Part shown: positions 6,537 through 49,237 of the stretch, piece after piece
Layout: each line of letters begins with the position of its first letter
Position numbering within the stretch: position 1 is the stretch's first letter
Notes under the pieces: generated by a model
Database searches by the model: none
What the model saw: the letters and a program-made list of their open reading frames with translations, nothing else
What the model was told of the DNA's origin: nothing
Position numbers and translations under genes: made by a program
IMG/VR virus record: IMGVR_UViG_3300037851_000284
Span: 96,001 to 160,000 of that record
Direction: 5' to 3' (one strand)
Length of the DNA stretch: 64,000 bases
Source of the DNA: a virus
Lineage: Duplodnaviria > Caudoviricetes

Positions 6537-6537
6537 T

Positions 6538-11121: not shown

Positions 11122-11122
11122 A

Positions 11123-16084: not shown

Positions 16085-16101
16085 GAAACTATTCTAATTA
16101 T

Positions 16102-21367: not shown

Positions 21368-21625
21368 TTAATTCCTAATTTGACCAAAATGTTTTCGATA
21401 ATAGTAATCAAACTTTAGTGTATCTATTATTCTAGGAGAATCTCCAACTAATATACCACTAGTTGTGGTCGCTAAATATTCTCCTGAAGTTTGTAATCTA
21501 TCATAAAGTCCAGAACAATATGGTTTATCTGGAAGGCTTTGTCCTAATAAATACACTAGATTCTCGTAAGATAGTAATAGTTTATTATTTATTTGTTCTG
21601 AAGATAGTGGAAAATTGCTTCTCAT
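21368..21625 (-). CDS. Small hypothetical virion-module protein
   Basis: Directly abuts neighbours; AGGA upstream; 3 SG dipeptides in 85 aa. Confidence 0.5.
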   Translation of the reverse strand: MRSNFPLSSEQINNKLLLSYENLVYLLGQSLPDKPYCSGLYDRLQTSGEYLATTTSGILVGDSPRIIDTLKFDYYYRKHFGQIRN

Positions 21626-24600
21626 TTATTCCTCGTTTATTGTAAATCGTATAGAACGTATTTTTGGTACAAGGCTACCGGTATCATCACTTAACAATAC
21701 TATTTTGTATAAGAATCTATTATTAGTATCGTCTGAATGAATAGATGTTCTATAAGATATTGAATAATAAGAAGAAAGATTTTCTCCCGTATTAAAGAAT
21801 AAAAATCCTCTATTTATATCGTCTATTTCTACAGAATTAGACACTAAATAAATTCGTCTATCTGTTCCGTGTCCAGTTGCTAAGAGCCAAGATAACCAAT
21901 TAGAAGACCCAACCGTTCCGCTGGCTGTCGGAGCCCTAGGATCAATATCATTTGGATACAATGTTATCTTCTGTGTATTAACACTATCTACATTTATAGG
22001 ATAACCATAAGTACTATGATGCGGATAATAAGTTATTCCTGTATAATTTGGAAACTCATTTAACGTGGCTCCGCCATTCCAAGTAGTATCTCTAGTTACA
22101 TTGTCTTTTATATACAATATATTACCAGAGGAGCCAGTAGTATAATAGAATTGGTCAACAAATCTTTTATCATAATTGTGTTGTCTAACCCAATGACCTT
22201 TATTATCTAACTGTTTAGTGGAATCAGAGTAATATTTTTTATTAATTGAATCAAAATAGTATCCAGGAACAGTATCTTTTGAAGGAAACTTAACTACTAT
22301 AAATTTTTCTCCATTTTCCTCATATATAGCTGCTCTCTGATCTCCAGTAAAAGAATTATATAATAAAGTATCTAATCCGACTAGTTTAATAGGGTCTATC
22401 TTATAAACTAATTTAACATTAGGAGATATAGTAATAGAACTGCTCTGTTTATTTTTATAAGGACTCCAATTATCGGCACAATATCCATTATCGTCATTAC
22501 TAGCACAGAATAAAGTTATTTTAAAATGACTTTCCGTATTGGTGGATCCGAAGAATATCTTAAACATACCGCCATTATCTTCTAGGTAATCTGTTATTTG
22601 TCCCGTATCCAGATTTTCAATTGCGATTTTATTAATAAGATTTATATTTTTATCTACTACTTTAACATTAGGAATTATGATATAAGGATTATAAGCATTA
22701 GCAGCAATAATAGCATATCCTGTCCAAGTAGATAAATATTCGTTTTTAGTTCTATATAAATATGTGTAATCAAATGTTATACCAGAAGGTTTTAACAAGT
22801 ATTTAGTATCGCTTAAAGGTCCAAAATATATACCTGTTATTGTTACTCCGCTATATAATACTTGATATTCCTTGGAATCTAAAACCTCAGCAGTATTATG
22901 GATTTTAACCTCTGTAATAGAATCAATAATAAATTCTTCATTAGTATTAATAATACTAGAAGCTATTGGTATACAGTATTCTATCCAAGATGCGGGATTG
23001 GCAGGGTCAGAATCCTTTTCTTTAAAACCGACTTTATTAATAAATTTAGATTTGTATTTCCATTTAAAATGACAAGGATATAAATCTCCGTCATTTTCGA
23101 ACGGTCGCTCCTGATATGTATATAGTTTAACGGTAGAGTCTAGAAGCGTCTCTCTACGACCAAATTTATATATTTTATAGAAAGGAGTATTATTAAAATA
23201 GAAATCTGGAACAAAGTTATGATAACTATCTTTTAAAAATCCACTTTCAGAAAATAACCCATTAATACCTGTTGGAGTAACAGTTTCGCTAAATGGTCTC
23301 CACCAACCATTTACGTGTGCTGTGTAGTCATTAAATACTAATAATGAACCACTAAGAGTATAATTAAATGGATATCCTATTCCGCTACCAAATCCTAACC
23401 ATTGACCGGAATATCTATTATCTGCTGCGATTGAAGGATGAAGATTTCCGCTAGAGTCTTCTATATTAGCCCATGCTATACTTAAATCTGTTGCGATATC
23501 TATTCCTGATACCAGAATTCCGGCAGTAACCAGCGGACTCATAGTAGCCCACGCTGTATTAGAAGTGTTAACCCAACCACTTAATTGTAATATTCCAGTA
23601 TAACCAACATCTCCATACATTAAAGGATTAGTTACAATAAACAAAGAATTATCGAGTTTTTTATTTCTTATTGTATTATCAAAATCTATTTGTTTTGGAA
23701 CTTGTTCGAAATTTGTATTAATAAATTGTATGTTTTTCCAATTAAAATCTAATCCTTTATAATTTAGTACTCCAGTTATTGTATCAGTTGAATTAATTAT
23801 ATCTGATAAATAAACATATCCATTATAAGTACTATCAAATTTATAAGCTTCTGAAGAATCGTAATTAACAGGTAGGTTTCCAGAGTTAAGGAAAGCTCCG
23901 CTAATCTTTATATCCTGAGCAACATATACGTTTACGTCACAATTCGGAGGAACGTCAATATCACCAGAAACAGTTAAGTTATTTATAATAGAAGTTTCTG
24001 AAGAATAACTATTTACAGAAATAGGTTTAGAATATAATGTAGCAGACCTTCTAGATGTGCTTTGTGAAATAGCTATATTATTAATGACATAATAATAGGT
24101 ATTAGTATCGAATGAATCTGGACTTTCTTTAATAAATTCTATTTTAATATAAGCGGTTTTTGTATTTGGAAAGTTAAATATTACTTTATCGCTTTTGATT
24201 TCTTGTATACTTTGGGTATTAACGTCTTTCCATTCAAACTGATTTTTATAATATAATCTAATATACCCTTTAGCTATATCCGAATCCATATCTATAACTA
24301 CAGAATTTATTTCTACTTCTGATGCATCGGGAGCTAATTGAAGAGTAATTGATGCTTTTAATGGAGTAGGAGTAGAAGTAATTATCCTATATACTAATTG
24401 TCTTGGGTCATCTTGGTCTAACATAGCTGCTGGATCAGAAGACCCAACATAACCATATTCGTTTATTTGAGCAAAATTCTCTACAATGTTAAACTCTATT
24501 TTAGAACCACGATAATGTTCTAGAGACAATATATTTGAAATATCTTTATTTATAGTAAATAATCCAGCGTCATAATTTACTGGGTCACTTCTTTGAACAT

Positions 24601-25015
24601 TGATATTGGTAGAAGTATCAAAAGATTCTGTAAAATTATATTTTAAAAAATCGTCTCCTATATTTCCGTTAGCTATATCTGTAGCATTAGATTTTATTCT
24701 TCTCATTTCTCTTTTAACGCCGTTGTGTTCTTTAAGAGAATTGGTTAGTTGATCAAGAATTTCCTGAGATTCTTTTTCTATAGAATTAAACAAGACATCA
24801 ATATCATCTATAATGTTAGAAAATTTTTTCCTGATTTCAACTATATCTATATCAGTCATGTGAGTATTAGTTGTAATTGGAATATTTTCTTCAGACGTTA
24901 ATTCGTTTATTTTAGATAACACATCATTTTTACTTGGAATACGCGGAGTTCCATATTCTCCTCTAATAAACGAAGAATAAACTTTGTCATATAGACTATT
25001 GATTTTATAATTCAT
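21626..25015 (-). CDS. Large putative baseplate/tail structural protein (1129 aa), paralog family member
   Basis: Coiled-coil N-terminus, FTESF...DAGLFTI, beta-rich body, C-terminal LVPKIRSIRF. Confidence 0.6.
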   Translation of the reverse strand: MNYKINSLYDKVYSSFIRGEYGTPRIPSKNDVLSKINELTSEENIPITTNTHMTDIDIVEIRKKFSNIIDDIDVLFNSIEKESQEILDQLTNSLKEHNGVKREMRRIKSNATDIANGNIGDDFLKYNFTESFDTSTNINVQRSDPVNYDAGLFTINKDISNILSLEHYRGSKIEFNIVENFAQINEYGYVGSSDPAAMLDQDDPRQLVYRIITSTPTPLKASITLQLAPDASEVEINSVVIDMDSDIAKGYIRLYYKNQFEWKDVNTQSIQEIKSDKVIFNFPNTKTAYIKIEFIKESPDSFDTNTYYYVINNIAISQSTSRRSATLYSKPISVNSYSSETSIINNLTVSGDIDVPPNCDVNVYVAQDIKISGAFLNSGNLPVNYDSSEAYKFDSTYNGYVYLSDIINSTDTITGVLNYKGLDFNWKNIQFINTNFEQVPKQIDFDNTIRNKKLDNSLFIVTNPLMYGDVGYTGILQLSGWVNTSNTAWATMSPLVTAGILVSGIDIATDLSIAWANIEDSSGNLHPSIAADNRYSGQWLGFGSGIGYPFNYTLSGSLLVFNDYTAHVNGWWRPFSETVTPTGINGLFSESGFLKDSYHNFVPDFYFNNTPFYKIYKFGRRETLLDSTVKLYTYQERPFENDGDLYPCHFKWKYKSKFINKVGFKEKDSDPANPASWIEYCIPIASSIINTNEEFIIDSITEVKIHNTAEVLDSKEYQVLYSGVTITGIYFGPLSDTKYLLKPSGITFDYTYLYRTKNEYLSTWTGYAIIAANAYNPYIIIPNVKVVDKNINLINKIAIENLDTGQITDYLEDNGGMFKIFFGSTNTESHFKITLFCASNDDNGYCADNWSPYKNKQSSSITISPNVKLVYKIDPIKLVGLDTLLYNSFTGDQRAAIYEENGEKFIVVKFPSKDTVPGYYFDSINKKYYSDSTKQLDNKGHWVRQHNYDKRFVDQFYYTTGSSGNILYIKDNVTRDTTWNGGATLNEFPNYTGITYYPHHSTYGYPINVDSVNTQKITLYPNDIDPRAPTASGTVGSSNWLSWLLATGHGTDRRIYLVSNSVEIDDINRGFLFFNTGENLSSYYSISYRTSIHSDDTNNRFLYKIVLLSDDTGSLVPKIRSIRFTINEE

Positions 25016-26372
25016 TCAATTGATCCTTATCAAAGATAATACATTTGTAATTATAAATCTCAGGAGGGATAAATCTATCCTCTTTTATTTTAGAAAGATC
25101 AAATACTATCTTAACTCTAAATATCTTAACGTTGTTTATTTCTATATATTTTATATATGAAACATCGTTTTGTAGCTTATCAAATATTAAGATTTTTGGT
25201 ACAATATTTCCATCAGACTTTTCGTCTATTCTATTAATTGGCGAAATTCTTTCCCACTTAGAATTAATTTCTATGAAATATTTAACTACATCATATCTAT
25301 TTATATCTACGTATTCTGGTATAAATTCCTCGGATTTAATAGAAATAGAATATAGATTAAAATCGACTGGATAGTAGTTTGATACATATACTCCCTGTTT
25401 AACATAAATATTATCTCTTATTGCTATATCATTTATTCCTATGCTTAATCTTTTCCTATTGATAATGTTAGGCTCAATTTCGACTTCTCCAACTTTCTTC
25501 AATTTATTAACATCCGGAGAACTAAATACCTGGTTGTCTAGATTTCTAAAGTAGTTGTCGGAATCTATAAATTTTTGATGATCCAAGCGTATAATACGGT
25601 CATTGGATCCTGGTTTATTAGAACTAGCACTAACGTTGGATATATATAAATCGTAAATTGCGGGAGTATTATATTGGGTTCGAGTATCATAATAATTTAC
25701 ATTAAAGGTTATACCAGAACTCATAGTTCCAGAACCATAGTAAATCCAATCAGATAGGGACGGTATCAATACTCCGCTATCATGAGCATAATTAATTTTA
25801 AATCTATATGGTCCATCGTTAGGATATACTCCATAAGCAGCATCTCCTTCATTATAAAGAGTATCCCATTTTACATTATATCTCATTGAATTATTACTAG
25901 ATAGATACCCGCTTATTATTACTTCTTTATTCTGTATATTATGTGGAAAAGTATAGACTCCACTATAACTACCATATATTTCTTCAGTATCTCTTTGTAA
26001 TATCCAATGAACATTAAATATTTTATTTTCCCAATAATAATCGTTTATTTTAACATCATTAAATTTTAAGTTAACATCAGAATCAGTATCATTCTCCCCG
26101 CCTAATACAGAAAAAATACCATAAGATATGTCATGATAAAATTTATCTCCGCGTAATCTAGTAAGTAGAGCACTAACAGAGTAAGCCTCTACTGGGTCTG
26201 GTAAGACAGTAATTCCGCTTGGTACTATTATAGCTTTAACTTTCGAGTTTGGAGTCAGAGTATATTCCCCAGACACTCTTAAATATAGATTGGCGTCCCC
26301 TTTATTAACAGCAACCATCTTAAGAGATGGTAAAGAAGAAGCACCAAGATTAACATAAACATAGTTTGCCAT
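25005..26372 (-). CDS. Putative baseplate/tail structural protein
   Basis: Beta-rich, SG-rich N-terminal half; C-terminal IPPEIYNYKC motif like those of neighbours; GGA upstream. Confidence 0.55.
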   Translation of the reverse strand: MANYVYVNLGASSLPSLKMVAVNKGDANLYLRVSGEYTLTPNSKVKAIIVPSGITVLPDPVEAYSVSALLTRLRGDKFYHDISYGIFSVLGGENDTDSDVNLKFNDVKINDYYWENKIFNVHWILQRDTEEIYGSYSGVYTFPHNIQNKEVIISGYLSSNNSMRYNVKWDTLYNEGDAAYGVYPNDGPYRFKINYAHDSGVLIPSLSDWIYYGSGTMSSGITFNVNYYDTRTQYNTPAIYDLYISNVSASSNKPGSNDRIIRLDHQKFIDSDNYFRNLDNQVFSSPDVNKLKKVGEVEIEPNIINRKRLSIGINDIAIRDNIYVKQGVYVSNYYPVDFNLYSISIKSEEFIPEYVDINRYDVVKYFIEINSKWERISPINRIDEKSDGNIVPKILIFDKLQNDVSYIKYIEINNVKIFRVKIVFDLSKIKEDRFIPPEIYNYKCIIFDKDQLNEL

Positions 26373-26380
26373 TGTTGTCC

Positions 26381-27988
26381 TTAGAATGGAATATTAAAGT
26401 TATTAGCTTTATTAGTTACGCACCATACTGATGCTTGATTAAATTGGTCTTCAATTCCGATATAAAATTTATACCTACCAGATTTTGATATAGTTATCTC
26501 TATTGATTGATCAGATAAAGAAGTATAAGTATTAGGAGTCAAAGTCGTTGAATTATAATACAATCCAGCGATTCCTAACGTAAATAATTGTTCCATTGTT
26601 GGTCCGGAAAGTTCAACATTAGGATAGGTCTCTACACTATCATACGGAGTGTATATACTTTTAAAAACAGCTAGATACTTTTCAAGCTCCGTTGTTTGCA
26701 GTGCTGCAGCATAAACCTTTGTGATATATGGATATATCTGAGAATCAGGCAACTTATCTCTAGAGGTACCTTTACTCCAATCTTCATGATTTGCATCAAA
26801 GGTTATTTTTGCGTAACACACCGTACCTGTAGGATTAATAAATATGTAAGGATTTAAATTATTAATATTATCTATTACGTTAGACTCATAAGAACCAGAG
26901 ACCATAAATTGTATTTTAACATCGTCTATTGAAAATCTATGACCTTTACAGAAACTGACCATATCAGAATAGGCTATTCCTCCAGAAATAGCTGGTTTAA
27001 TTCCTGCTAGTTTTGGTTCATATGAAACATAACAATAATCCCCTCTCTTCATCGTTGAACTAGGAATCATAATAGTTGAAGGAGGTAAAAAGTTACTGGT
27101 GTAATTTACAGGAGACCCTTCTTTTATCTTATTCTCAGCTCTACTATATACACATTTTTTTACATTCTGTAATTCCGTATATGTTACACTATTTTTATTA
27201 CTATCCATAGTAATAGAAAAATATACTTCTGCATCAGTTTTATTAATGGCAGGACTAACAGATATACTTCCAGTAGCATTAGGAGGGTCTAGAGATACTC
27301 CAGTATACTCTTTTGATGCTATTATTACTCCGTATTTATTTAGAACTTTTACGTTAATAATACAGTTACTTAGAACGAAATTAGGGTCGGTGAATAAATA
27401 AGAACTTGGAGCATTGCTTAAATCCAGTTTTGCTGTTATACCAAGATTAAAACTACCAGTAGAGTTATCATAATGCCAGAACAATCCCTTTATTCTTTGC
27501 TCCGTTCCACCGTATAATAGATTAACTGAACTACAAGTAAAAGTAATTATAACGTCTTCGCCTATAGCCCAATAACCAGTTCTAGAACCAGTTTTATTGG
27601 CGTTCCATGTAGCGTAATCTCCCCCAATAGTAAATCCCATATCGGGTCTATAGTTATCATTAATTTCTATTCCGCCTTTGTCTGTGTTCCAACCCGTAGC
27701 TATTGGTAACTTTGAATAAATTCCACTACAACTATTGATATTAATTACTATAGGTATTCCGTTTTCTGAAATTATTTTAGATTTATCGTCGGTGTAATTT
27801 TGGGATCCCAAGGTAGGGTCCGCCCAATAACCAATGGTTGCTGTGCTTCCCAAAGTAAGAGTTTGAGGAGAATAATTTTTGTTTATTATAGATAAGTTGT
27901 TGGCAGAAGAACTATATAAAATAACCTGATTATCATTAGTACTAAAACCAACATCATCTTGAGAATATAATATATTTTTTGTTTCCAT
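26381..27988 (-). CDS. Hypothetical beta-rich virion-module protein
   Basis: Long ORF rich in S/T/N/G/Y within the structural operon. Confidence 0.5.
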   Translation of the reverse strand: METKNILYSQDDVGFSTNDNQVILYSSSANNLSIINKNYSPQTLTLGSTATIGYWADPTLGSQNYTDDKSKIISENGIPIVININSCSGIYSKLPIATGWNTDKGGIEINDNYRPDMGFTIGGDYATWNANKTGSRTGYWAIGEDVIITFTCSSVNLLYGGTEQRIKGLFWHYDNSTGSFNLGITAKLDLSNAPSSYLFTDPNFVLSNCIINVKVLNKYGVIIASKEYTGVSLDPPNATGSISVSPAINKTDAEVYFSITMDSNKNSVTYTELQNVKKCVYSRAENKIKEGSPVNYTSNFLPPSTIMIPSSTMKRGDYCYVSYEPKLAGIKPAISGGIAYSDMVSFCKGHRFSIDDVKIQFMVSGSYESNVIDNINNLNPYIFINPTGTVCYAKITFDANHEDWSKGTSRDKLPDSQIYPYITKVYAAALQTTELEKYLAVFKSIYTPYDSVETYPNVELSGPTMEQLFTLGIAGLYYNSTTLTPNTYTSLSDQSIEITISKSGRYKFYIGIEDQFNQASVWCVTNKANNFNIPF

Positions 27989-27989
27989 T

Positions 27990-29531
27990 TTATACCGAGA
28001 AAAATTCTAAGCTATTGATTTGTCCGTCTTTAGATAAAGTAATTTTATCTATTACTAAGGTTGTTGACCCTATAAATTTTAAATTGCTTGTAACACTAGA
28101 ACAGTTACTTGTTATATTTTCAACTATCGATTTATCTTGATTACAATTATTATTTATTATTATATTACTTTCATTTATTTGTGTTGCTCCTGCTGTTCTT
28201 AATTTAGCTGGTAATCCATTATAAAGAATACCGGTTCCTAAAGAAGCAGCGAAACTAGAACTGATTGTAGGAAATTTAAATATATATCTTTTTGAATCAG
28301 AATGAAATAATATATATAAATTACTACTCTTTTCGATTAAATCTACATCAGTTCCATTAAAAATTCTACGGCTTGCTATATTAAGTAATGAGTCATAAAT
28401 TATCATATCTGAAGTTAAATCCGAGTTATTTATCAAATACACATAATATCCATTTGCTGTATACATTGATATTCTTAGTACTGTAGTTTCAGTATATACA
28501 GTAGAGTCGTAGTCAGTTACAGCAGTAAACCCAGAAGATAAAGTAAACTTACTAATTGTATGAATATATCTATAACCGTTTCTGTCTACAAAGTAGTTCT
28601 TAATAGAGTTCGCAACAACTACGACGCCAGTAGAAGATAGATAATCGATATCTACTAGGCAACCTAGACTCATTGGTTGAAACCTAAAATTAATATATCG
28701 ACTATCTGAAATATAACGACCTGGAATAAGATTATAATTCCATAGCTTAGAGGTATAGGCTCCAGTAATAGAAGTATTTATTTTAGCAATATCCATAGAA
28801 GCAGTTGATTCTCCAAACCAAGCAGTATCAACTGGATACCCCCATGCGGTGGGAGTTATACTTAGATTTTTTCCAGCTACAGTTAAATCGCTTCTATTGA
28901 CTCGTATTCTTACTACTACAGGAATGGTCCAAAACCAATGAAACGGTTTAGTAAAAGAAATACTAATATCAGAATATGAACCAAACATATCTACTCTACT
29001 AGATACCGCTATATATAAATCATCATATGTAGTATTAGATTCTACCACCATCGATGCTTGTAGGTCATAGGCTTCTATCTTATTAACTGTAACATCAACG
29101 TATTTACTATTTCCTAAGTTTTGCATTTCCCATTGCTGAGAAGACACAAAATATTTAAGACAACTTCTAGGAACATTTAGTTCTATAAATTTAGTAGCAG
29201 AATCAAATTCTGCAGGCATTGAAAGAGAAGAAGTAATTCCTGGATTGAACGCCGCTATGTCTGTAGCACTATCAATCAAAGAAGATTTGATTTTATTAAA
29301 AAACGTAGCATCGTTAATCATTAATCTGTAAGGTAATACAGGTATTATATGTTTTGATAAAACTAAATCTTTATCAGAACCTTGAGCTGTACGTATTATA
29401 AGTTGTTTTCCGCTATCACAGTTAATAGTAGATAAAGTATAATTAATAGCCAAAGAATTATACTTCGAGGCAGTAAATCCTTTTTTATTATTAACATACC
29501 CAATAGTGTCTGGATAGTTATAAGTAGACAT
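27990..29531 (-). CDS. Hypothetical beta-rich virion-module protein
   Basis: Long ORF coupled to the upstream gene; no recognisable motif. Confidence 0.5.
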   Translation of the reverse strand: MSTYNYPDTIGYVNNKKGFTASKYNSLAINYTLSTINCDSGKQLIIRTAQGSDKDLVLSKHIIPVLPYRLMINDATFFNKIKSSLIDSATDIAAFNPGITSSLSMPAEFDSATKFIELNVPRSCLKYFVSSQQWEMQNLGNSKYVDVTVNKIEAYDLQASMVVESNTTYDDLYIAVSSRVDMFGSYSDISISFTKPFHWFWTIPVVVRIRVNRSDLTVAGKNLSITPTAWGYPVDTAWFGESTASMDIAKINTSITGAYTSKLWNYNLIPGRYISDSRYINFRFQPMSLGCLVDIDYLSSTGVVVVANSIKNYFVDRNGYRYIHTISKFTLSSGFTAVTDYDSTVYTETTVLRISMYTANGYYVYLINNSDLTSDMIIYDSLLNIASRRIFNGTDVDLIEKSSNLYILFHSDSKRYIFKFPTISSSFAASLGTGILYNGLPAKLRTAGATQINESNIIINNNCNQDKSIVENITSNCSSVTSNLKFIGSTTLVIDKITLSKDGQINSLEFFSV

Positions 29532-31009: not shown

Positions 31010-31010
31010 T

Positions 31011-31772
31011 TTATCCCTTTAAATACTGACCATGTAGTTTAGCTATATAATAATCTACCGTAGGGGTAGAATAACTTTTCAACCCAGAATTTCCAGACAT
31101 TAAACACTTGATTTTAATAGAGTTATATGTTATAAAACAATGAAGTTTAATTTGAGATTGGTCAAACCCAGCAAGATTCTGGTTAGTATATAATTTATTA
31201 ATAATATTATCATAATAAAATTCTTTATTTGAATTCGCTTTAATATCAATTAGAGTTATATCAGTATTAAAAGTATCATAGTCAGTAACGTCTTTAACAA
31301 CGCTCCCGAATAATTCTAAAAATATTGGTCTTCCTGAATAAACTTTTATATCGTCTGTTGTTGCAATATCATCAATAGCAGTAACTTTAGAATAAAATCC
31401 TAGGTTTTTACCAAACTGATTGTATAGTAAGACATCAGGATTAAATGTTAATTTTTTATTATAATATTTTCCAACTTTATATAAAGAAGTTAAAGTCCAG
31501 TCAACTCCATTAGAATGTCTGGATATCCGAAGAGGTAACCCTTCAGAATCATACCAAAACCAATCTTTTGTTTCTGTATCATATTTTGAAATATCTATAA
31601 ATGGATTAATTGGGTTCTCTCCATCACATAGAGTAATAACAGATTTAAGACCATTTAGACCAGTTTCAATTTTTAAATTATCATTAGCATTTAATATTCT
31701 TTTTTTAGGAATAATATAAAAAGGAATATAGATATTATTTAATAGTATTGATTCAGGAGTATATTCTATCAT
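31011..31772 (-). CDS. Putative virion structural protein
   Basis: C-terminal STPTVDYYIAK resembles the C-termini of neighbours. Confidence 0.5.
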   Translation of the reverse strand: MIEYTPESILLNNIYIPFYIIPKKRILNANDNLKIETGLNGLKSVITLCDGENPINPFIDISKYDTETKDWFWYDSEGLPLRISRHSNGVDWTLTSLYKVGKYYNKKLTFNPDVLLYNQFGKNLGFYSKVTAIDDIATTDDIKVYSGRPIFLELFGSVVKDVTDYDTFNTDITLIDIKANSNKEFYYDNIINKLYTNQNLAGFDQSQIKLHCFITYNSIKIKCLMSGNSGLKSYSTPTVDYYIAKLHGQYLKG

Positions 31773-34033: not shown

Positions 34034-34034
34034 T

Positions 34035-37039: not shown

Positions 37040-37041
37040 AT

Positions 37042-39087: not shown

Positions 39088-39094
39088 TATGGCC

Positions 39095-40721: not shown

Positions 40722-42181
40722 TAACTTTCCTCACTATACATTAAAATATCTGAGTTATATAAAAATATCTGATCTTGATATACTACTATTTCTTGTACTG
40801 TTATATCAGTCATAGTAGTAAAATTAAATCTAACAAGATTTGATGTGTATGTTTGTGAATCTACGGTTACTTTAACATATCCTGCACAAGAATTTATATT
40901 TTTAATATCAGCACAAGAATAAGATATGTTTGCTACTCCGCGTCTGTCTGTCCAAAAATCAGCACATTTTACAAAAGAACCAGTATTATTCAAATAGAAT
41001 TCTCCAGATACATTAGATAGAGCACTTAAATTAGATTTGTTATTTAGAACTATTCTTGCTTGTATACTATCATGTGAATCTAATCTATACGAAGTAACCC
41101 TTTGGTTGCTTAAAATAGGATTAATATTCTTTTTTAGTGTTTTTCTTCTGTCTGTTACAGTATTAAGTGGTTCATGTGCTCCAATCGAAACTGTGCCAAG
41201 ACTGTTAGGTCGAGAATTTCCTTTATAATCAGTAGTATTCCATGCTGATATATCTGTTGTTCCAAGTTGATATAAAGAACTATTAGTTCCTATTTCACCA
41301 TAAGTTGATGATGTAGGATCTATTGATGTAAAATCAGAATTGGTTATTCCGTGAACATTATTATCACCTATAGTCAACGAATTATCAGAATCAGCACAAT
41401 TTTTAATTGTGTAATATTCTGGATAATTAACGCTAGGAAGATGCCAGTTTTCTTTATTATCAACTATTATGTTATCGTCACCACATATGACTACGTTTTT
41501 AAATGTACTCCAGAATGCCTGATAACTAAATGCTCCATATATACCAAACTCTACACCAAATCCGACAGGACTAAAAATGGTACAATTTTCCATAATTGTA
41601 ATTCTAACATCAGATGCTGGATAATATGGTCCTGTACCATCACCAAAAAATTCTATACCTTTAGCTCCATATTTATTGCCAGTGTGTGCCCGTAAATTAG
41701 TTATCTTCCACATTGATGAATTTAATCTATATAAACGAAGACAGGCATTTAATTTACCATTAGCATTAAGTAATAAATTATCAAGTTTCCATATTTGTGC
41801 TGTGGTTGCATTACTAACCCACCCACCGCTATATAATATAAGTAAACCATCGAAATTGCTTGCATTATCAGCAGCCTTAATTTTCAAGTTGCTCATCTCA
41901 ACATAACCTTTAGTCTTATTAACTGGATTATAATATAACGTGGCATTATTTAGAATTATTGCTACTGTGCTGGTAGTATTATATTTTGAAGGATTTAATA
42001 ATCTTAAAGTATGTTGATTTAAATATAATGACCTTGATATACATGCCGTATCATTATTAATATCAGATATTTGAACTAGATCATAATCGTCTTCAACCAC
42101 AGTCAAAGAGGTTAAATAATTAATAACTGATCCCCAATCAGTATAATCACCACCGGTTCCAATTTGTAATGTAGTACTCAT
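40721..42181 (-). CDS. Beta-helix (pectin-lyase-like) tail protein with C-terminal shared adaptor module
   Basis: IGTGGDYTDW N-terminus, repeating beta-helix-like turns, TDYKGNSRP...SIGAHE cap, then the TDRRKTLKK module. Confidence 0.7.
   Translation of the reverse strand: MSTTLQIGTGGDYTDWGSVINYLTSLTVVEDDYDLVQISDINNDTACISRSLYLNQHTLRLLNPSKYNTTSTVAIILNNATLYYNPVNKTKGYVEMSNLKIKAADNASNFDGLLILYSGGWVSNATTAQIWKLDNLLLNANGKLNACLRLYRLNSSMWKITNLRAHTGNKYGAKGIEFFGDGTGPYYPASDVRITIMENCTIFSPVGFGVEFGIYGAFSYQAFWSTFKNVVICGDDNIIVDNKENWHLPSVNYPEYYTIKNCADSDNSLTIGDNNVHGITNSDFTSIDPTSSTYGEIGTNSSLYQLGTTDISAWNTTDYKGNSRPNSLGTVSIGAHEPLNTVTDRRKTLKKNINPILSNQRVTSYRLDSHDSIQARIVLNNKSNLSALSNVSGEFYLNNTGSFVKCADFWTDRRGVANISYSCADIKNINSCAGYVKVTVDSQTYTSNLVRFNFTTMTDITVQEIVVYQDQIFLYNSDILMYSEES
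40820..41155 (-). repeat. Copy 2 of the adaptor module
   Basis: TDRRKTLKKNINPILSNQRVTSY...FYLNNTGSFVKC...WTDRRGVANISYSCADIKNINSC...YTSNLVRFNF. Confidence 0.75.
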
Positions 42182-43746
42182 TAATTTCTCAAACTATTAT
42201 AATATATACCATTCGGTGCTAAACTTAGATATATAAAGAATTTTTCTAAGTTTAAGTTTTGGTCATTTAAAGGATTTAAATCATAACATAAATATGTACC
42301 ACTAGGAGTTAAAGCAGTATCATATATTAATTGTGTATTTTGATAACCAGAACCATCTGGTAATCGAGCATATATATAATTAGTATCAAAGTCAATCATA
42401 TATCTACCCATAGGTAGTTCGGTTTTAAATCCAGTGTTTTCAGTTAAGAACGCTTTTCTTTGGTATATATCAGACCAGATTTTATCTCCATCTATACCGA
42501 CATTATAAGAACAATCTTCGTATACTCCACTAAGATAAGAGTCTCTAGAATAATTACAATAGTATGTATTATAAAAGCCGCTCTTGGCAAGTATGGTATA
42601 CATTCCTCTTGTTAGTGTGCTAGGAATAGCACTATAATATAAACCACTATAGTCTCCTGTTGTAAGTTTAGATAATGTTAGATAGCTAATATTAGGAGAT
42701 TCAAAGTAATAAAAAGGAATTCCTTCAACATAAAAGGTTCCAGGATAAATTTTAGTGTACCAGTAATTAGCCACTCCAGATATTTCTTCTATAGAAGTCT
42801 GGTATAAACTATAGCTTAAAGAATCTATTCCTCCTATATATCCTGTATAATATATAGATGATCTATAAGTGTTTTCTGGAACACACGCGTCGTAAAAGGA
42901 AGGGATCTGACCGCTACCATAGTTTTTATATACGTCCCATATACAAGAATTATTTGTAACTTTGTCCCAAGTATGATTATATTTATTATCTATATAGTTT
43001 TTAAGGTCATATAATAGTTGAGTGGGATGCCCATTAGAATCATAATACATATTCTTAAGACCAGAAGGGATGTTATTTAAATTATAAACTATAGCATTAG
43101 TAGATATATCTAGATTCTGTTTTTCTATTCTATAGGTAAATCTTGTGTCGTTTTCGTCTTTTTGATTATTCATATCTGTATATCTTAATAAAGTTTTATT
43201 ATTATAAGAATCTACAGTTTCTACATAATACTCAAATTTTAATTGAGTATAATCTTCAAATTCTCTGAATACTTCTACTATATTTGAATAATCAAAATTC
43301 TTATAACCGGATATATTAGCAAATCGTTCTCTTTGCCATACTATAAATCCTACTTTATTTTCTTTAGCAGTATAATAATCCTTTCCCCATATTTGAGGAC
43401 CAATGTTATCCCAAGTACCACTAGACGTTTTATAGTATCCAGAAATATCTTGAATATAAGGGGAACCTGATGGAATAGGATTATAACTAAGTTCAAATAT
43501 ACTTTTTTTAGTTACATTATATGGAGTTAAATCAAATTGGGTATTAATAGCATTAACTAAACCTTGTTTTGTAATATCTGAAGGATAATCGTGTTCCTTT
43601 AATATTCTATTTTTTGCTTCAAGACTAGTCTCAAATGGTTGTCTAATATATAATAGGTTTTTATATTGGTCGTCCCATACAGCAAGCCCATTTAATAAAC
43701 CAAATACATCTAAACTACCCCAAGTTTGTTTTTTAATAGGTTTCAT
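42181..43746 (-). CDS. Putative baseplate wedge protein (gpI/gp7-like N-terminus)
   Basis: LDVFGLLNGL...RQPFET...KNRI...GLVNAI resembles wedge-protein N-termini; 12 SG dipeptides. Confidence 0.55.
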   Translation of the reverse strand: MKPIKKQTWGSLDVFGLLNGLAVWDDQYKNLLYIRQPFETSLEAKNRILKEHDYPSDITKQGLVNAINTQFDLTPYNVTKKSIFELSYNPIPSGSPYIQDISGYYKTSSGTWDNIGPQIWGKDYYTAKENKVGFIVWQRERFANISGYKNFDYSNIVEVFREFEDYTQLKFEYYVETVDSYNNKTLLRYTDMNNQKDENDTRFTYRIEKQNLDISTNAIVYNLNNIPSGLKNMYYDSNGHPTQLLYDLKNYIDNKYNHTWDKVTNNSCIWDVYKNYGSGQIPSFYDACVPENTYRSSIYYTGYIGGIDSLSYSLYQTSIEEISGVANYWYTKIYPGTFYVEGIPFYYFESPNISYLTLSKLTTGDYSGLYYSAIPSTLTRGMYTILAKSGFYNTYYCNYSRDSYLSGVYEDCSYNVGIDGDKIWSDIYQRKAFLTENTGFKTELPMGRYMIDFDTNYIYARLPDGSGYQNTQLIYDTALTPSGTYLCYDLNPLNDQNLNLEKFFIYLSLAPNGIYYNSLRN

Positions 43747-43758
43747 TTAATATTCCAA

Positions 43759-44823
43759 TTAAGAAGCTAATCCTCGTTCTATTAATAATGCTCTTATAGC
43801 ATTAGCTAATGTCATTGTGGTGCTAGCGTCTGTTGCTGCTGCAGGAAGCGTTATATTTCCAGAACTAGGAATAGTAAAACTAGAACTCCCGCACGACAGA
43901 TTTAGAGATTCGGGAGCATAGGAATAAATATAATCAAACGCGTCTATTCCTCCATTTTGTCCACCAAAGATAGCAACTCCTCCACCAAGATGAGTTCTAA
44001 AGAAAGCGTTTCCGCTACCATGGTCGTTGCCTACAGTTAGACCAAAGTGTTTACCACCTATATTTTCAGCATTTCCACTATAAGGCAATCCGCTGCCTAT
44101 TACTAATTGTCCATTAGGAATATTAATATAATGACCGCTAGGATTGGCTATAAACTTAATTGACCTACTAATAGTGTCATTATTATAATATCTCCATTCT
44201 AATCCACTAGGTGTCAAATCAACATATTCGTAATCAGAAGGTCTAGAAGAGTGATTCGGAGGAAGGGTTTGTGTGATATTAAGACCAGAACTAGGAATGG
44301 CAGTTAGGCTAGAATCGATGTAATCGTTCCCTGCCCACTGAGACCTCATATATATTTCTTGGGGATGAACTTTTAGTTCATGTTCTTGTGTTGGAGAAAT
44401 ACACCCATTATAAATAAAAGCTTCTAATCCACTTAAAGTAAGAGAAGTAGGAACAGTAGTATTAGTGTAAATAGAAGTACTTGTGTCTCCATTATTTAAA
44501 TAAAGTCCACTATTAGTTAATTTAGATCTTACGGTACCCCCTCTAGAAGCTGACGTTTCTATATAATTAGAATAGAATCCGCTTTTAGAGGTAATATCAT
44601 CTATATATCCTGATTCAATTGTTAAATCTGACCTCCCAAGCATTTTACTATTTACATAGTTTTGTACTAAAGACACTTCATATCCTATACTGTTACGCAT
44701 AGAATTCTTATTAACCGGTGTATAATTATCTCTTATACATCGTACTACATCATCTGGCTTATAACTCCCGCTTTGCCAGCATGTCGCCATGCTTAAAGAA
44801 GGATTATCATTAGGATAACTCAT
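43759..44823 (-). CDS. Fibre-like virion protein
   Basis: S/T/G-rich beta segments; C-terminal AATDASTTMTLANAIRALLIERGL resembles fibre trimer tips; 12 SG dipeptides. Confidence 0.55.
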   Translation of the reverse strand: MSYPNDNPSLSMATCWQSGSYKPDDVVRCIRDNYTPVNKNSMRNSIGYEVSLVQNYVNSKMLGRSDLTIESGYIDDITSKSGFYSNYIETSASRGGTVRSKLTNSGLYLNNGDTSTSIYTNTTVPTSLTLSGLEAFIYNGCISPTQEHELKVHPQEIYMRSQWAGNDYIDSSLTAIPSSGLNITQTLPPNHSSRPSDYEYVDLTPSGLEWRYYNNDTISRSIKFIANPSGHYINIPNGQLVIGSGLPYSGNAENIGGKHFGLTVGNDHGSGNAFFRTHLGGGVAIFGGQNGGIDAFDYIYSYAPESLNLSCGSSSFTIPSSGNITLPAAATDASTTMTLANAIRALLIERGLAS

Positions 44824-44831
44824 TTTTACTC

Positions 44832-46943
44832 CTATAGATCTACATCATCGTATTGTTCTCTTAACAATACCTTGGTTTCATCATCATAGTTTGATTGAAT
44901 CAAGGCATAATCATATGCTAATTTATATTTATAAATTCCACTTGCGCTATAATAATCTGCTATCAAGAAGGTTCCGTCTTCATATACTGTTATATCAGTA
45001 GGATAGTAGTTTCCCGAGGCTAATGTGTGTATCACTGGCCCATTATCTTCGCCTGCTGGATATTTGATATAATTCATGAACAAATCATTAGTATTATACT
45101 GTAATAGTTTACCTATAGGTTCTCCTGTAGGAATTATATTTCTATTGGTTATATCTAGGGGATACTGACCTGCAGCAATGAATATGTTATCTTTAAATAC
45201 TTTTGCTCCTCTAAGATCAAATTTAGTGTTCATATTAGTAGGAATCCAATTAAAATCTCCTAACTCAGTTAATCCTATAATTTTCTTATTAGGGTCATCT
45301 GATAATATAAATGTATAATAATCTCCCTTTACCCCTGTATATATTAATCCGGATGGTCTTATTACTGATTTAGTTGGGGTTTGACATAGCAACGGATAAT
45401 ATTCTAATTCCTCTCCTGTATAAAGATTCTGTTTAATTAGAGATTGATTGGTGCCGTCAATAACCCACATAATATTTCTACCGGCATGCGATTGATTATA
45501 ATCATAAGAAATGCCTCTATAATCATATTTATTATAAACTTTTATATTATCTTTAACTATGTCTCTATAAAAAATCGCATTTGGTATAATTCCTAATTTT
45601 GTACCCATCACGTCTTCGATATTTATAACGGATCTTGGTATTATATAATTATTATAATCTTTTATTTCTGTAGTTTTTAAAGTTATTATATCCCAATCCC
45701 AAGGATAGAGGTCGGGATTATTAAAGTTAATATCAAATGACGGATATGTATTGACGTTATACTCATCAAAAACCATATTAACATATAATTCATATCTTAG
45801 ATTTTTATAATTAGATACTAAATCAGCAAAAGTTAATTCCCTATTATAATCACTAAATACGATAGTATCATCTTGAGTATAAATATATTGTAGAAAGTCT
45901 GACGTTTTAAGCAATCCTCTACTATCAAATATGCGTAATTTGGTAGCATCTAAATCATAGGTTATGGAACTATCCAGATTCAGGTTGGGTTTTATTTCAA
46001 CACAAGGAGACCCGTCGGTTTGTTTAAACTGTAATCTATAGTCTCTATTTGTACTATCATTGAATTTAGGGTCGAGATGTATATTATATCCTCCTGAAAT
46101 AGTAGTAGCTAAGGTTGATCCTGGATATAAGCACGAATTTTCTACTACAGACCCAGTAGATGCTCCTCCGGATATATTAATAACAGAAGTTTTTGATATA
46201 ATCTTATCTGCATATATAAACGCGTTATTTATATATATGGGACTGTTAAAAGTAGAATTAGTTAAATACAATGTCCCAGACCCAACATTAATATCAGCGT
46301 ATGTATTTCCATACATTAAGGTTCCAAATATATCAATGGTAAAAGAATTACCATAATAAACACCAACATAGTTATCGTGTATACATGAATTATGAATTAT
46401 AGGATTAGTACAGTATATTCCTGTTCCATAATTTGATATACTACAATTTGTTACAACATTAGTACCGCCACTAATATCATATAAAAAGTAATTTTTATTA
46501 TTGATACCATAGGAATCTAGATTCTCAAACTGTACAGTTCCTCCATAATTTAATACTCCACTTGAGTTATTAATAAGCTGAGTGTTTTTAACACTCAATC
46601 CAAATCCAGAAGGAACAGTAAACCAGTAATTAGGTAATCCGGAACAGTCTATGGTAAATCCTTCTATATATAAATTAGGAGCATATGAATACGAATAATT
46701 TCCACTAACAGTACCAATTCCACTAACTAGACACCAATATGTCCCACTACCAATTATATTAAAAGTTCCGCTATATGGTATAAACCCACTTATGGTACCG
46801 CTATAAGACCCTCCATCAACTATCATTGTATAGGTAGTTATATCTCCAGACGCAGCTAATCCACTAACAAGCATATCATTAAATGCTGTAGTGATAGTTG
46901 TATAATCACCGGTACCATCTCTTTTAACATATTTAAGTAACAT
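44832..46943 (-). CDS. Beta-helix (pectinesterase/pectin-lyase-like N-terminus) tail protein
   Basis: YVKRDGTGDYTTITTA start, parallel beta-helix repeats, LDPKF...DYRLQ...SPC cap, then a separate C-terminal domain. Confidence 0.7.
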   Translation of the reverse strand: MLLKYVKRDGTGDYTTITTAFNDMLVSGLAASGDITTYTMIVDGGSYSGTISGFIPYSGTFNIIGSGTYWCLVSGIGTVSGNYSYSYAPNLYIEGFTIDCSGLPNYWFTVPSGFGLSVKNTQLINNSSGVLNYGGTVQFENLDSYGINNKNYFLYDISGGTNVVTNCSISNYGTGIYCTNPIIHNSCIHDNYVGVYYGNSFTIDIFGTLMYGNTYADINVGSGTLYLTNSTFNSPIYINNAFIYADKIISKTSVINISGGASTGSVVENSCLYPGSTLATTISGGYNIHLDPKFNDSTNRDYRLQFKQTDGSPCVEIKPNLNLDSSITYDLDATKLRIFDSRGLLKTSDFLQYIYTQDDTIVFSDYNRELTFADLVSNYKNLRYELYVNMVFDEYNVNTYPSFDINFNNPDLYPWDWDIITLKTTEIKDYNNYIIPRSVINIEDVMGTKLGIIPNAIFYRDIVKDNIKVYNKYDYRGISYDYNQSHAGRNIMWVIDGTNQSLIKQNLYTGEELEYYPLLCQTPTKSVIRPSGLIYTGVKGDYYTFILSDDPNKKIIGLTELGDFNWIPTNMNTKFDLRGAKVFKDNIFIAAGQYPLDITNRNIIPTGEPIGKLLQYNTNDLFMNYIKYPAGEDNGPVIHTLASGNYYPTDITVYEDGTFLIADYYSASGIYKYKLAYDYALIQSNYDDETKVLLREQYDDVDL

Positions 46944-49237
46944 TATTGTGCCTCATAAAATAACTTAAATCCGCCTATATCAACATTACAATTTTTAAAT
47001 ATTCTAATTGTTGTTGATCCAACAGAATCATCAGCGCATGTAGTTTGTGATAATTTAATTTCCCTATACCAAGGGTCTGTTTCTTCTTTATAATAAAGTT
47101 TAAATGTTGGAACATTACTAGATATGTCATCCGGAGCATATTTAACTATAAAACTTTTACGATTTTCATTAAAATTAATATATTCTTTTCCAGTAAATTG
47201 ATATCCGTCTGCCTGAATTCTCAATTTTCCATCAATATCAAAGTCAAAATAAATATACTTGTCAAAGTAATCATCAAATAATTCTAATAATCTTCCGCTA
47301 CTTACTAGTCTTAACTTGCAATCAAATTGAAAATATGTTCCTTGTGATGGATACTGGTCGCTTACTTTAATATATGAGATATTATCTTTATAATAATAGG
47401 CTTCCCCATTTGTTTTAATCATTTTCTTTCCATAAGAATCGTTATAATTTATTTTATAAATAGGATATTCACCACTATATCTTAAGTCATTTCCGTTCGA
47501 ACTAACATCTGTTTCGATAAGGTTCCCAGAAACAGCAGTATCGAATAAACAATTAATTGAAGTGTGTCTGAATGTAGTAATCTGGGGCACAAATTCGTTA
47601 GAATATCCGGCATATAATTTATTAGTATTTTGATATAAAGGACCAGTAACTTGACCTTCAGAAAACTTCATTGGTAAATCAAAAGACATCTTATAAATTT
47701 TACTATAAGGTCTAACCTTTAATCCATCAAACGTTATTACTTTTGATGGTTCATTCTGATTGGGATCTTTTGTAAATTCGTATTCTAGTTCATTTAAAGT
47801 TCCGCTTTGATTGACAGTTGTAATAGGACTGCTAGTATGTAAAGAAATATAATTACTAGCTAAAGGAGAAGTTATATATCTGATACCATCATATGTTTTA
47901 TATTTATATTCAACCATATATCGACTATAGTATCCAGATATTTTTATTCGATTTGTAATTGATCCGGAACCATCAACATAAGTCATAGTTCCTTCGTCTA
48001 TCTTTCCGCTTTCGTGTAAATAATCCCAACTAGTAGTCTGTAGAAGAGTACAACCAGACCCTTCCATATTAGCACTGAATCCTTTTCCTGAAGGAACAAT
48101 TGAATCGTACCCTACATATATAGGGTCAAAGGCTCCATCAGCATCTCCAGAAGCCGTACCTAAAAACATTTTGCGGGATTTATAATAATATAAAGGTTTT
48201 CCAGTATATGGAATTTCTGTAGCATTTCCACTAGAATCGAGAATATCTATATCATATAGATGCATCGTTCCGCTAATAGGAATGTGCTCTAAATCTAAAT
48301 ACGCAACAGTATAATTATTATATCCATAGGGGTTATTATATGCTGTTCTATAGTAAATTTTGTTTCCGCCATTATCGTAATAATAATCTCCTGAATAATC
48401 CACTATAGCAACACCGCTTCCAGTTTCATCTTTAATCCAACCGTGGTAAGGAGTATAGTGGTCGATTACATATACTGTCCCGCTTTCATCTAGAACCTCT
48501 CTTGTAAGAGGATATTTACCACTTAACGTTTGACTATTAATAGGATATAAGAACTCATATTTATAAGTTCCAGAATATTGTTGGTTTTTAATTCCTGTAA
48601 ACATTCCATATATATAATTATAATCTCCAGTATGTGCAAAATTTGTACCTACATCGACCGCAAATACAGGATATAGTCCTGATTTAAATGCGGTTTCTTG
48701 GTCTATATCGCTAGATATAACTAGATATCCTGACCCTCTTTCATCTGACCTAATGTATTCTAAACCCATAAATCCGGTTAATGTAGACCAACATTCTTTA
48801 TTAAATCCTATATCGAACCCATTATCAAATCCTGCTCCGGAAGCAACCAATATTCCGGTATAGGTTGAATAATACATAGGTATTCTTACAGAACCAGTAT
48901 TAATAATCCTAGTTGGACTTCCGTCATAGAATTCGTTTTCATTAGTAATCTTAATTGGTATTGATCCGGAAGCATTTATAAAATTAGTAATAGGAACACC
49001 AGATATTGTAGCAGAATAAAGAGTTAATTCGTTAGATAAATCAAACGAGTTAATAAAAGAATTATTATATAACTCTTTCATTTTTTTATTAAGATAATCA
49101 AGTTCTACTCCATATAATAAGTTTATATATTTATAACCGTTAGAATTTTTATCATCAGCCATCTTAAAACTTGGAGGTAGAATAGCTTTGATTATTCGTT
49201 CAGTGCATTCCGCTTGTTTTGGTTGTTTTGTAAACAT
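46943..49237 (-). CDS. Putative baseplate wedge protein directly downstream of J
   Basis: Position after the J-like gene, helical N-terminus, beta-rich body; 22 SG dipeptides. Confidence 0.55.
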   Translation of the reverse strand: MFTKQPKQAECTERIIKAILPPSFKMADDKNSNGYKYINLLYGVELDYLNKKMKELYNNSFINSFDLSNELTLYSATISGVPITNFINASGSIPIKITNENEFYDGSPTRIINTGSVRIPMYYSTYTGILVASGAGFDNGFDIGFNKECWSTLTGFMGLEYIRSDERGSGYLVISSDIDQETAFKSGLYPVFAVDVGTNFAHTGDYNYIYGMFTGIKNQQYSGTYKYEFLYPINSQTLSGKYPLTREVLDESGTVYVIDHYTPYHGWIKDETGSGVAIVDYSGDYYYDNGGNKIYYRTAYNNPYGYNNYTVAYLDLEHIPISGTMHLYDIDILDSSGNATEIPYTGKPLYYYKSRKMFLGTASGDADGAFDPIYVGYDSIVPSGKGFSANMEGSGCTLLQTTSWDYLHESGKIDEGTMTYVDGSGSITNRIKISGYYSRYMVEYKYKTYDGIRYITSPLASNYISLHTSSPITTVNQSGTLNELEYEFTKDPNQNEPSKVITFDGLKVRPYSKIYKMSFDLPMKFSEGQVTGPLYQNTNKLYAGYSNEFVPQITTFRHTSINCLFDTAVSGNLIETDVSSNGNDLRYSGEYPIYKINYNDSYGKKMIKTNGEAYYYKDNISYIKVSDQYPSQGTYFQFDCKLRLVSSGRLLELFDDYFDKYIYFDFDIDGKLRIQADGYQFTGKEYINFNENRKSFIVKYAPDDISSNVPTFKLYYKEETDPWYREIKLSQTTCADDSVGSTTIRIFKNCNVDIGGFKLFYEAQ

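Follow-up and report, generated by a model that had tools for sequence, protein, structure and literature searches.

Why is one dipeptide, serine-glycine (SG), so common in the virion proteins of a phage that also carries a large island of sugar genes, and do the two belong together? The question is raised by a 64,000-nucleotide stretch (the window; bases 96001–160000, ~30% GC) of the 219,054-bp single-contig virus record IMGVR_UViG_3300037851_000284, here called G000. The plus-strand half of the window (1–19401) codes for sugar-nucleotide and transferase genes, and its minus-strand half for virion proteins, among them a gp6-like baseplate wedge subunit and giant proteins of 2349 and more than 1600 aa. 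The original prediction, made from the letters of the window, held that SG is strongly enriched in outer baseplate and fibre proteins and marks serines that the neighbouring sugar genes would O-glycosylate. Our analysis confirms and extends the observation and partly supports the interpretation: SG is a turn element that has been selected on outer virion proteins and amplified in certain lineages, and its serines may be O-glycosylation acceptor sites read by a conserved pair of glycosyltransferases (GT494 and GT4), a reading of the sequences that we hold with somewhat less than even confidence.

The Ser-Gly excess and the proteins that carry it

The SG count of each protein was compared with 2000 composition-preserving shuffles of that protein; counts written a/b or a vs b are SG observed versus expected, and O/E is observed/expected. 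Nine minus-strand proteins stood above the shuffled expectation (z 3.5–7.9, Table 1), with GS, NG, DG and AG not raised in the same shuffles and TG raised slightly. When all 400 dipeptides were scanned over the 20 open reading frames (ORFs) between 21626 and 49237, SG was the lone outlier (159 vs 63.3, z 12), the runner-up reaching z 3.9. The counts given in the original prediction were reproduced (22 in 764 aa, 20 in 480, 18 in 631, 14 in 1129, 12 in 354, 12 in 521 and 7 in 137); only the 703-aa protein differs, with 18 SG rather than 17, and with 15 rather than 14 concentrated toward the N-terminus, in the first 283 aa. The excess also survives the shuffle comparison with GS, TG and NG that had been proposed as a check, and the rate stated for the plus-strand enzymes, about one SG per 200 aa, agrees with 30 SG in 6289 aa over 20 plus-strand ORFs (~1 per 210 aa). 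Eight ORFs within 21368–49237 show no excess (for example, 40721..42181, 2 vs 3.2, and 29531..31009, 0 vs 2.3). In the rest of G000, a second enriched block lies beyond the window (genome 177473–192251; 88 vs 40.5, z 7.5), genes outside the late class show neither excess nor deficit (O/E 1.04), and the three giant proteins are SG-depleted (13 vs 30.8).

The signal lies at the level of protein and not of DNA, since the dispersed SG sites use six Ser codons and four Gly codons (mixed AGY and TCN), and a DNA-level motif is ruled out on this basis. AGC is over-used before Gly, but TGC, GGC and CAC are likewise, which is a general xGC-GG context effect that also involves Cys, Gly and His codons. 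In the late genes of G000 (genome 116000–211000, minus strand), xGC codons (AGC, TGC, GGC) and CAC are 2–3 times commoner before a Gly codon, which suggests a preference for GCGG over GTGG. Paralogous repeats were likewise rejected as a source: the SG-rich proteins are not paralogues because no BLAST-detectable similarity exists among them, and more than one fold is represented.

The structural setting of SG can be seen in the 703-aa protein. Its AlphaFold2 (AF2) model, made with 25 homologues, has a mean pLDDT (predicted local distance difference test score) of 82.6 and lies mostly above 85 over residues 1–300; the model and Foldseek together give a pectate-lyase-like beta-solenoid fold. The Foldseek matches are AlgE6 (E 5.8e-5), AlgE4 and PL6 lyases and, among phage tailspikes, those of Fri1 (gp49), Sf6, Pam1, Dettilon and P22, so that the modelled protein appears tailspike- or depolymerase-like. 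The 15 N-terminal SG of the 18 fall within the beta-helix domain, typically at strand-SG-strand arcs. What SG marks is a tight strand-to-strand arc, and this element has multiplied on virion proteins of the clade that are unrelated in sequence. A 55%-identical homologue of this protein (P0010) is found on a 229-kb contig labelled at NCBI as a Candidatus Omnitrophica metagenome-assembled genome, which is probably a mis-binned phage genome of the same clade.

Enrichment depends on the protein family. Over ~40 IMG/VR loci of the clade, SG O/E is 4.35 in the w88815 family, 3.40 in the w90512 family, 2.14 in a decoration-like family (221 vs 103, 39 orthologues) and 1.71 in the sheath family; it is slightly raised, 1.35, in the major capsid protein (MCP) family, 0.96 in the portal-like family, and only 0.48 and 0.47 in the w85202 and w96254 families. 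In G000 itself, the MCP has 2 vs 2.0 and the candidate tube protein w79681 has 1 vs 2.1. The tail sheath, assigned by a PHROG match and encoded outside the window, has 16 SG vs 5.9, with 10 of the 16 in its least conserved middle domain (residues 312–479). The decoration-like protein of G000, 392 aa long, is encoded beside the MCP gene, also outside the window. Its model, built with 36 orthologues, has a pTM (predicted template modelling score) of 0.77; Foldseek alone returned nothing at E ≤ 0.001, and the top 17 VIA-align matches (Z 4.1–7.0, all <8), from tailed phages plus one archaeal virus, are nearly all capsid decoration, cement or head-fibre proteins. From the model we consider it, with moderate confidence, capsid-decoration-like, the candidate fold being the beta-tulip of decoration and cement proteins. 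Proteins or domains that face outward, or seem to, are thus the ones with the excess, and three of them are structurally characterised here. The placing of SG in outer baseplate and fibre proteins, as first proposed, holds for the 703-aa tailspike-like protein, the sole one checked, and the description that fits the excess is outward-facing or outward-looking virion proteins. Most of the SG-rich proteins have no match in PHROGs or Pfam, the 764-aa protein being one of these.

Context, conservation and spread of the Ser-Gly turn

A total of 794 sites gave the SG context [V/I/P]-x-[A/P/V/I]-S-G-x-[Y/W/L/F/I]. Position +3 is hydrophobic at a frequency of 0.62 versus 0.36 in the background and aromatic at 0.27 versus 0.13, Pro or Ala is enriched at −1, and charged residues fall to 0.09 (−3), 0.09 (−1) and 0.07 (+3) versus a background of 0.20. 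Sites of NG, DG, TG, GS and AG lack a profile of this type. The sites are dispersed, as described earlier, and the preference at +3 agrees with the form x-S-G-x-hydrophobic that had been given for many of them.

G000 belongs to a jumbo myovirus-like lineage and is uncultured. Megablast found no cultured close relative, and by tblastn the only matches are baseplate proteins of 0305phi8-36 (a Bacillus phage) and MTATph1 (a Moorella phage), at just 28% identity. For comparison we used four related contigs fetched whole (G001–G004) and one fetched in part (G009); G001 (230 kb, with terminal repeats) is complete, and G004 is IMG/VR 3300033146_000946. By description, the clade resembles the "moraphage" lineage, presented in PMC12619734 as large aquatic phages with predicted Bacteroidota hosts and four core glycosyltransferase orthogroups, without a recognised RNA polymerase.

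The SG excess recurs in orthologues from at least six related phages. In G001, G002, G003 and G009 alike, no dipeptide departs further from expectation than SG, and their orthologues of the SG-rich proteins are SG-rich too (Table 1). In an alignment of 26 sequences of the 703-aa protein (23 other database homologues and the G002, G003 and G004 orthologues), each has 10–23 SG vs 4–7 expected, except that of G004. Some SG positions are nearly fixed, and Ser531-Gly532 is kept in 26/26 sequences; turnover is also considerable: when four sequences of the 764-aa protein are aligned, 27 of the 42 columns with SG have it in one sequence alone. Among 104 replacements of Ser before a retained Gly, Thr leads with 39, ahead of Gly (14), Tyr (11), Asn (8) and Asp (8). 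From AGY codons, Asn and Gly are easier mutations than Thr.

The picture is different in G004. Its 703-aa orthologue (L037:1927-3903) has 2 SG, the turns that are conserved as SG elsewhere being filled by NN, EN, DN or SN, and in the tail proteins of this 25% GC genome NG is the raised dipeptide (1.48x). The tailspike fold therefore does not need SG, and part of the signal is a turn requirement.

Outgroup lineages were gathered via the MCP, which gave seven long contigs of the same gene order, the distal-tail block coming after a gp6-like gene; two are complete, including G013, while G015–G017 are 61–73% complete. SG O/E of the distal tail is 2.61 in G009, 2.54 in G000, 2.44 in G001, 2.26 in both G002 and G003, 2.13 in G010 and 1.55 in G004; it is 1.46 in G013, 1.41 in G014, 1.34 in G011, 1.31 in G017, 1.23 in G015 and 0.92 in G016. 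The wider group has an SG baseline of ~1.2–1.5x, and a subset of lineages amplifies it to more than 2x. In T4, the baseplate, sheath, head and long-tail-fibre proteins have SG O/E values of 1.09 and 0.98, and the value for 0305phi8-36 is 1.08, which rules out a general property of myovirus tails; MTATph1 has 1.65, with GS raised too. Scans of the MCP neighbourhood proved a poor discriminator, with clade loci at 1.3–2.4x and outgroup loci at 0.8–1.6x, mostly 1.0–1.6x.

In the giant proteins, SG is 152 vs 214.6 over the clade (0.71) and 256 vs 244.3 over the outgroups (1.05). We rejected avoidance of a sequon as the cause of this depletion: it is uncoupled from the enrichment, the giant proteins of G010 standing at 1.09 and those of G004 at 0.68.

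Two fibre proteins of relatives consist largely of Gly-Tyr-Ser or Gly-x-Ser triplets: one of 1709 aa with 258 SG (L060:5041-10170, IMG/VR contig 3300047552_001770) and one of 680 aa with 156 SG (G011, 57517–59559). These repeats have a collagen-like or polyglycine-II-like look, with Ser before each Gly and without Pro or charged residues.

Table 1. SG-rich proteins, SG-poor neighbours and sugar genes; positions are those of the window unless marked as genome positions
Position (strand)	Feature	SG observed vs expected	Orthologues (SG) and other data
1..17097 (+)	variable sugar cassette: RmlB-like and Fcl-like SDRs (short-chain dehydrogenases/reductases), C-methyltransferases, 2 radical-SAM enzymes, GT-A/GT-B enzymes, WecB		
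17366..18523 (+)	GT4: conserved GT4-type GT-B glycosyltransferase, 3' end of sugar island		PF00534, PF13692, PF20706
21626..25015 (-)	1129-aa SG-rich protein, first 349 residues SG-free	14 vs 6.1, z 3.5	TG also up, 12 vs 5.0; G001 16/6.2, G009 22/7.4
25005..26372 (-)	455-aa SG-rich protein, absent from the original prediction	7 vs 2.1, z 3.6	G001 10/2.0
26381..34033 (-)	5 co-oriented ORFs without excess (535, 513, 492, 253, 753 aa)	5/4.0, 2/3.0, 0/2.3, 3/1.0, 4/2.9	
34035..35930 (-)	631-aa SG-rich protein, strongest excess in window	18 vs 3.9, z 7.9	G001 10/3.8, G002 10/2.8, G009 13/3.3; G004 just 1/1.9
37042..37455 (-)	137-aa small SG-rich protein	7 vs 2.1, z 3.8	G001 8/1.3, G009 9/2.6
39279..40721 (-)	480-aa Gly/Ser-rich protein (S 12.1%, G 12.5%)	20 vs 7.1, z 5.6	GS also up, 14 vs 7.2
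42181..43746 (-)	521-aa SG-rich protein, phrog_21059 "virion structural protein"	12 vs 2.7, z 6.1	13/2.3, 9/2.5, 15/3.4; G010 homologue 11/1.8
43759..44823 (-)	354-aa SG-rich virion protein	12 vs 4.8, z 3.9	
44832..46943 (-)	703-aa tailspike-like protein: modelled N-terminal right-handed beta-helix (~1-300), C-terminal propeller-like part	18 vs 4.5, z 7.1	
46943..49237 (-)	764-aa SG-rich virion protein, directly downstream of gp6-like wedge gene	22 vs 5.8, z 7.3	GS 9; G001 20/5.2, G002 12/3.3, G003 13/4.1, G009 18/5.4
49246..50499 (-)	gp6-like baseplate wedge subunit, start of distal-tail block	1 vs 1.9, not enriched	phrog_6, E 7e-27
51812..58861 (-)	2349-aa giant protein, lysin-like domain, phrog_20474	0 vs 7.7, z -2.9	
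genome 84572-86056 (+)	GT494: conserved GT-B upstream of window (L056:4572-6056:+), just after primase-helicase gene		PF00534, PF13692, PF20706

Between the SG-rich genes, a Laminin_G_3 (concanavalin-like lectin) protein at 38068–39087 shares a 120-aa C-terminal module with its 486-aa neighbour at 40721–42181, and neither is strongly SG-enriched.

Conserved transferases and a variable sugar cassette

Two GT-B enzymes with matches to GT1/GT4-type Pfam families, GT494 and GT4, occur in every one of the six long-contig genomes of the clade; they bracket the sugar cassette, which starts upstream of the window at GT494 (genome 84572–114523, window −11428 to 18523). GT4 is located just before a ClpP-like gene and the late genes and has orthologues in G001, G002, G003, G004 and G009 at 35–62% identity. 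The best solved relative of GT494 is B736L of chlorovirus NY-2A (PDB 3oy2, E 2.4e-8), and its nearest Atlas clusters are virus-dominated GT4 groups of Uroviricota and Nucleocytoviricota. Inteins have entered GT494 in G002, G003 and G009 and GT4 in G003; GT494 of G009 is a single open frame of 1257 aa that is matched in three separate pieces. Two window genes also contain inteins, the RmlB-like dehydratase (175–1899) and a B12-binding radical-SAM enzyme, the latter with an HNH endonuclease (6526–8697).

The cassette between the two transferases is almost wholly replaced among relatives, as in an O-antigen or serotype locus. Its length is ~27 kb in G000, 16 kb in G001 and G009, 6 kb in G002, 9 kb in G003 and 1.5 kb in G004, and almost none of the genes in window 1–17097 has a homologue in G001–G004. 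The size of the island was considered as a correlate of SG strength over G000–G004 and set aside, the gradient being confounded by ascertainment and G010 combining a tiny island with 2.13x. The part of the original prediction that made this cluster the glycosylator does not stand: G001, with the same SG excess, lacks homologues of its SDR, C-methyltransferase and radical-SAM genes, which breaks the specific link of SG to the neighbouring sugar genes. Nor was a UDP-xylose-synthase-like SDR, also proposed, recovered. The window SDRs are best described as RmlB-like or Fcl-like (best models: dTDP-glucose 4,6-dehydratase, 191 bits, partial, and GDP-fucose synthase) and score 31–42 bits against the NCBIfam UDP-xylose synthase model with its cut-off of 294, while WecB is above its own cut-off.

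Transferase content and SG excess vary together among the long contigs. Where a GT494 orthologue is at least 33% identical (G000–G004, G009, G010), distal-tail O/E is 1.55–2.61, six of the seven genomes lying at 2.13–2.61; in genomes with none (G013, G015–G017) or a 26–29% identical relative (G011, G014) it is 0.92–1.46. The two groups do not overlap (Mann–Whitney p 0.0012 with kinship ignored), and the comparison amounts to 2–3 independent lineage contrasts. PF00534 had no match in G013 and G015–G017, of which the last three are incomplete as given above, and PF00535 had none in G013 and G014. The comparison with phages lacking transferases, proposed earlier as a test, is therefore partly favourable, the excess being weaker there (0.92–1.46x), and partly not, as it is phylogenetically confounded and G004, with its transferases, has just 1.55x.

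A role of the sugar island in DNA glycosylation was also considered. DNA glycosylation needs a hydroxymethyl base. A ThyA-type hydroxymethylase (PF00303) was not found in G000, the only genome searched, nor a C5 DNA methyltransferase (PF00145) in G000, G001 and G009, which are complete or near-complete; a search for TET/JBP (PF12851) found nothing, but its positive control failed too. These negative results make this role less likely.

Readings of the Ser-Gly turn and comparison with known systems

We propose that folded virion proteins would be O-glycosylated in the cytoplasm at SG serines by GT494 and GT4. The candidate acceptors would be the beta-helix tailspike, other distal-tail proteins, the variable domain of the sheath and the capsid-decoration-like protein. 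As the cassette between the two transferases differs among relatives, the attachment chemistry may be conserved while the glycan varies by lineage through the cassette, as in a serotype locus. That the virion-wide SG sequon, the intein-invaded GT-B pair and the hypervariable cassette together form a particle serotype system of jumbo phages is a further step, and we put it forward still more tentatively.

Several results count in favour of SG as an acceptor. No other dipeptide stands out as SG does; both its order (SG, not GS) and its serine matter, it is written in mixed codons and it recurs in unrelated folds, with a context of its own and with Thr as the commonest substitute for Ser. O/E stays at 0.98–1.09 in T4 and 0305phi8-36 and at 0.92–1.46 in the four relatives without a PF00534 match, which have the same tail-gene order, and the GT494 groups do not overlap. 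GT494 and GT4 are kept in the clade, in which no hydroxymethylase or C5 methyltransferase was found under the searches described, and the TibA precedent (below) and the (G-Y-S)n fibres point the same way.

Other results weigh against it. Glycosylation of the virion is a prediction, and the acceptors of both transferases are candidates. G004 has both enzymes and yet places NN or xN at the conserved SG turns, with an excess of 1.55x, so that any turn-former can occupy the SG positions and a genome can possess the enzymes without SG being enforced. The baseline of 1.2–1.5x persists in most relatives that lack a detectable transferase, SG ranking 3rd of 371 dipeptides in G013, and the association with transferases consists of the few confounded lineage contrasts noted above. 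Cytoplasmic phage enzymes do not avoid SG (O/E 1.04), the depletion of the giant proteins is untied to the enrichment (G010 has a strong excess and G004 a weak one), and the sugar island adjoins replication genes, as DNA-modification islands often do.

The explanation that we regard as nearly as likely as the sequon is purely structural: S-G would be the preferred two-residue beta-arc of this lineage, unmodified, with the Ser or Thr hydroxyl capping the backbone and Gly in a left-handed conformation, on outer proteins rich in beta-solenoid and beta-sandwich arcs, and the transferases would serve another purpose. It accounts for the location of SG at strand boundaries in the models, for the positional conservation of many sites such as S531-G532, and for the fold that G004 maintains with other turn residues. 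The baseline in most relatives lacking a detectable transferase fits it too, as do some enriched outgroup sheaths (13/5.1, 10/4.3), and replacement by Thr suits the hydrogen bond of an ST-turn as well as it suits an acceptor. What this explanation does not predict is the absence of excess in the baseplate, fibre and sheath proteins of T4 and 0305phi8-36, the difference between 0.9–1.5x in orthologous or analogous proteins of six outgroup genomes and 2.1–2.6x in the clade, or the parallel excess in unrelated folds. The usual turn dipeptides NG and DG are not raised, although at ~30–33% GC Asn would be expected over Ser.

Two further explanations appear improbable. SG might be a recognition element for another modification of Ser (phosphorylation, acylation, ADP-ribosylation) or a docking motif for an assembly or accessory factor; the extended context and the Ser/Thr preference would fit any hydroxyl-directed enzyme, and the genome carries radical-SAM and other modification-type genes. 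However, G001 does not share the radical-SAM genes of the window, and among kinases, acyltransferases and ADP-ribosyltransferases no candidate that is conserved along with the trait came to light. Beside the late genes, conserved enzymes of a modification type are limited to the two glycosyltransferases. We give marginally less weight still to a compositional by-product, by which AT-rich genomes keep only essential Gly, sharpening the biases of Gly dipeptides, with the depletion of the giants as a similar side effect. The clade does lie at 25–35% GC versus 36–46% in most outgroups, its giant proteins are depleted throughout, G004 included, and the xGC-GG codon-context effect exists. On the other hand, the most AT-rich genome, G004 (25% GC), has the weakest excess, G010 and G011 share the same GC (~34%) but differ in excess (2.13x and 1.34x), SG rises alone and not NG, DG, TG or AG, and the shuffles correct for composition protein by protein.

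Only a handful of phages have documented virion glycosylation, and the one acceptor rule known among tailed phages concerns the C-terminal sites of mycobacteriophages. If SG is an acceptor, a simple sequence statistic would predict glycosylated virion proteins and surfaces in uncultured phages, the large, fast-evolving sugar islands of lytic jumbo-phage genomes would be explained, and a cytoplasmic enzyme-sequon pair would become usable for the glycoengineering of folded proteins. If SG is structural, it is a clean example of a lineage-specific turn code able to mislead the search for sequons. Literature searches turned up no description of an SG rule in phages, in agreement with what the original prediction had said.

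Of the known systems, proteoglycan xylosyltransferases share the Ser-Gly acceptor core. Their site needs acidic neighbours, whereas charged residues are depleted around the phage SG, and no equivalent of a UDP-xylose synthase was found in the phage cassette; the analogy drawn in the original prediction fails on both points. Giant viruses encode a cytoplasmic glycosylation of their own, with methylated sugars and with sugar clusters that vary between clades, and in chloroviruses the capsid glycans are N-linked at atypical sequons, the acceptor of B736L being unproven. The likeness lies in GT494, whose closest solved structure is B736L, and the difference in the linkage, N-linked there and an SG candidate here; we know of no SG rule in chloroviruses or giant viruses. 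In BclA, collagen-like repeats are glycosylated at Gly-x-Thr. The triplet fibres of the relatives similarly place a hydroxyl residue before each Gly, but they have Ser rather than Thr, contain no Pro and lie outside this window.

In mycobacteriophages, virion proteins are O-glycosylated, the glycans being attached at the C-termini of the capsid and tail-tube subunits (Freeman et al. 2023, cited in PMC12619734). Glycosyltransferases are phage-encoded in that system, and putative virion-decorating ones are encoded here; the lineage is another one, the candidate sites are dispersed SG turns, and the MCP is not enriched, so that the C-terminal capsid and tube pattern does not appear in the corresponding G000 proteins (2 vs 2.0 and 1 vs 2.1, as given above).

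The mechanistic analogue of the proposed reaction would be TibC/AAH, cytoplasmic GT-B enzymes that heptosylate many Ser, and no Thr, in turn loops of the beta-helical autotransporters TibA and AIDA-I (PMC4358343). The phage enzymes are GT1/GT4-type (PF00534), set apart from the GT9 heptosyltransferases, a family for which Pfam scans of the conserved transferases gave no match, and are therefore not members of the TibC/AAH family; moreover, there is one partner adhesin there, and there are many unrelated candidate acceptors here. The likeness would lie in the acceptor: dispersed turn-loop serines on a beta-helix there, including the mapped TibA site Ser-313, heptosylated within N-S-G-G (PMC4358343), and here candidate SG sites in the arcs of a modelled beta-helix tailspike, with TG barely enriched.

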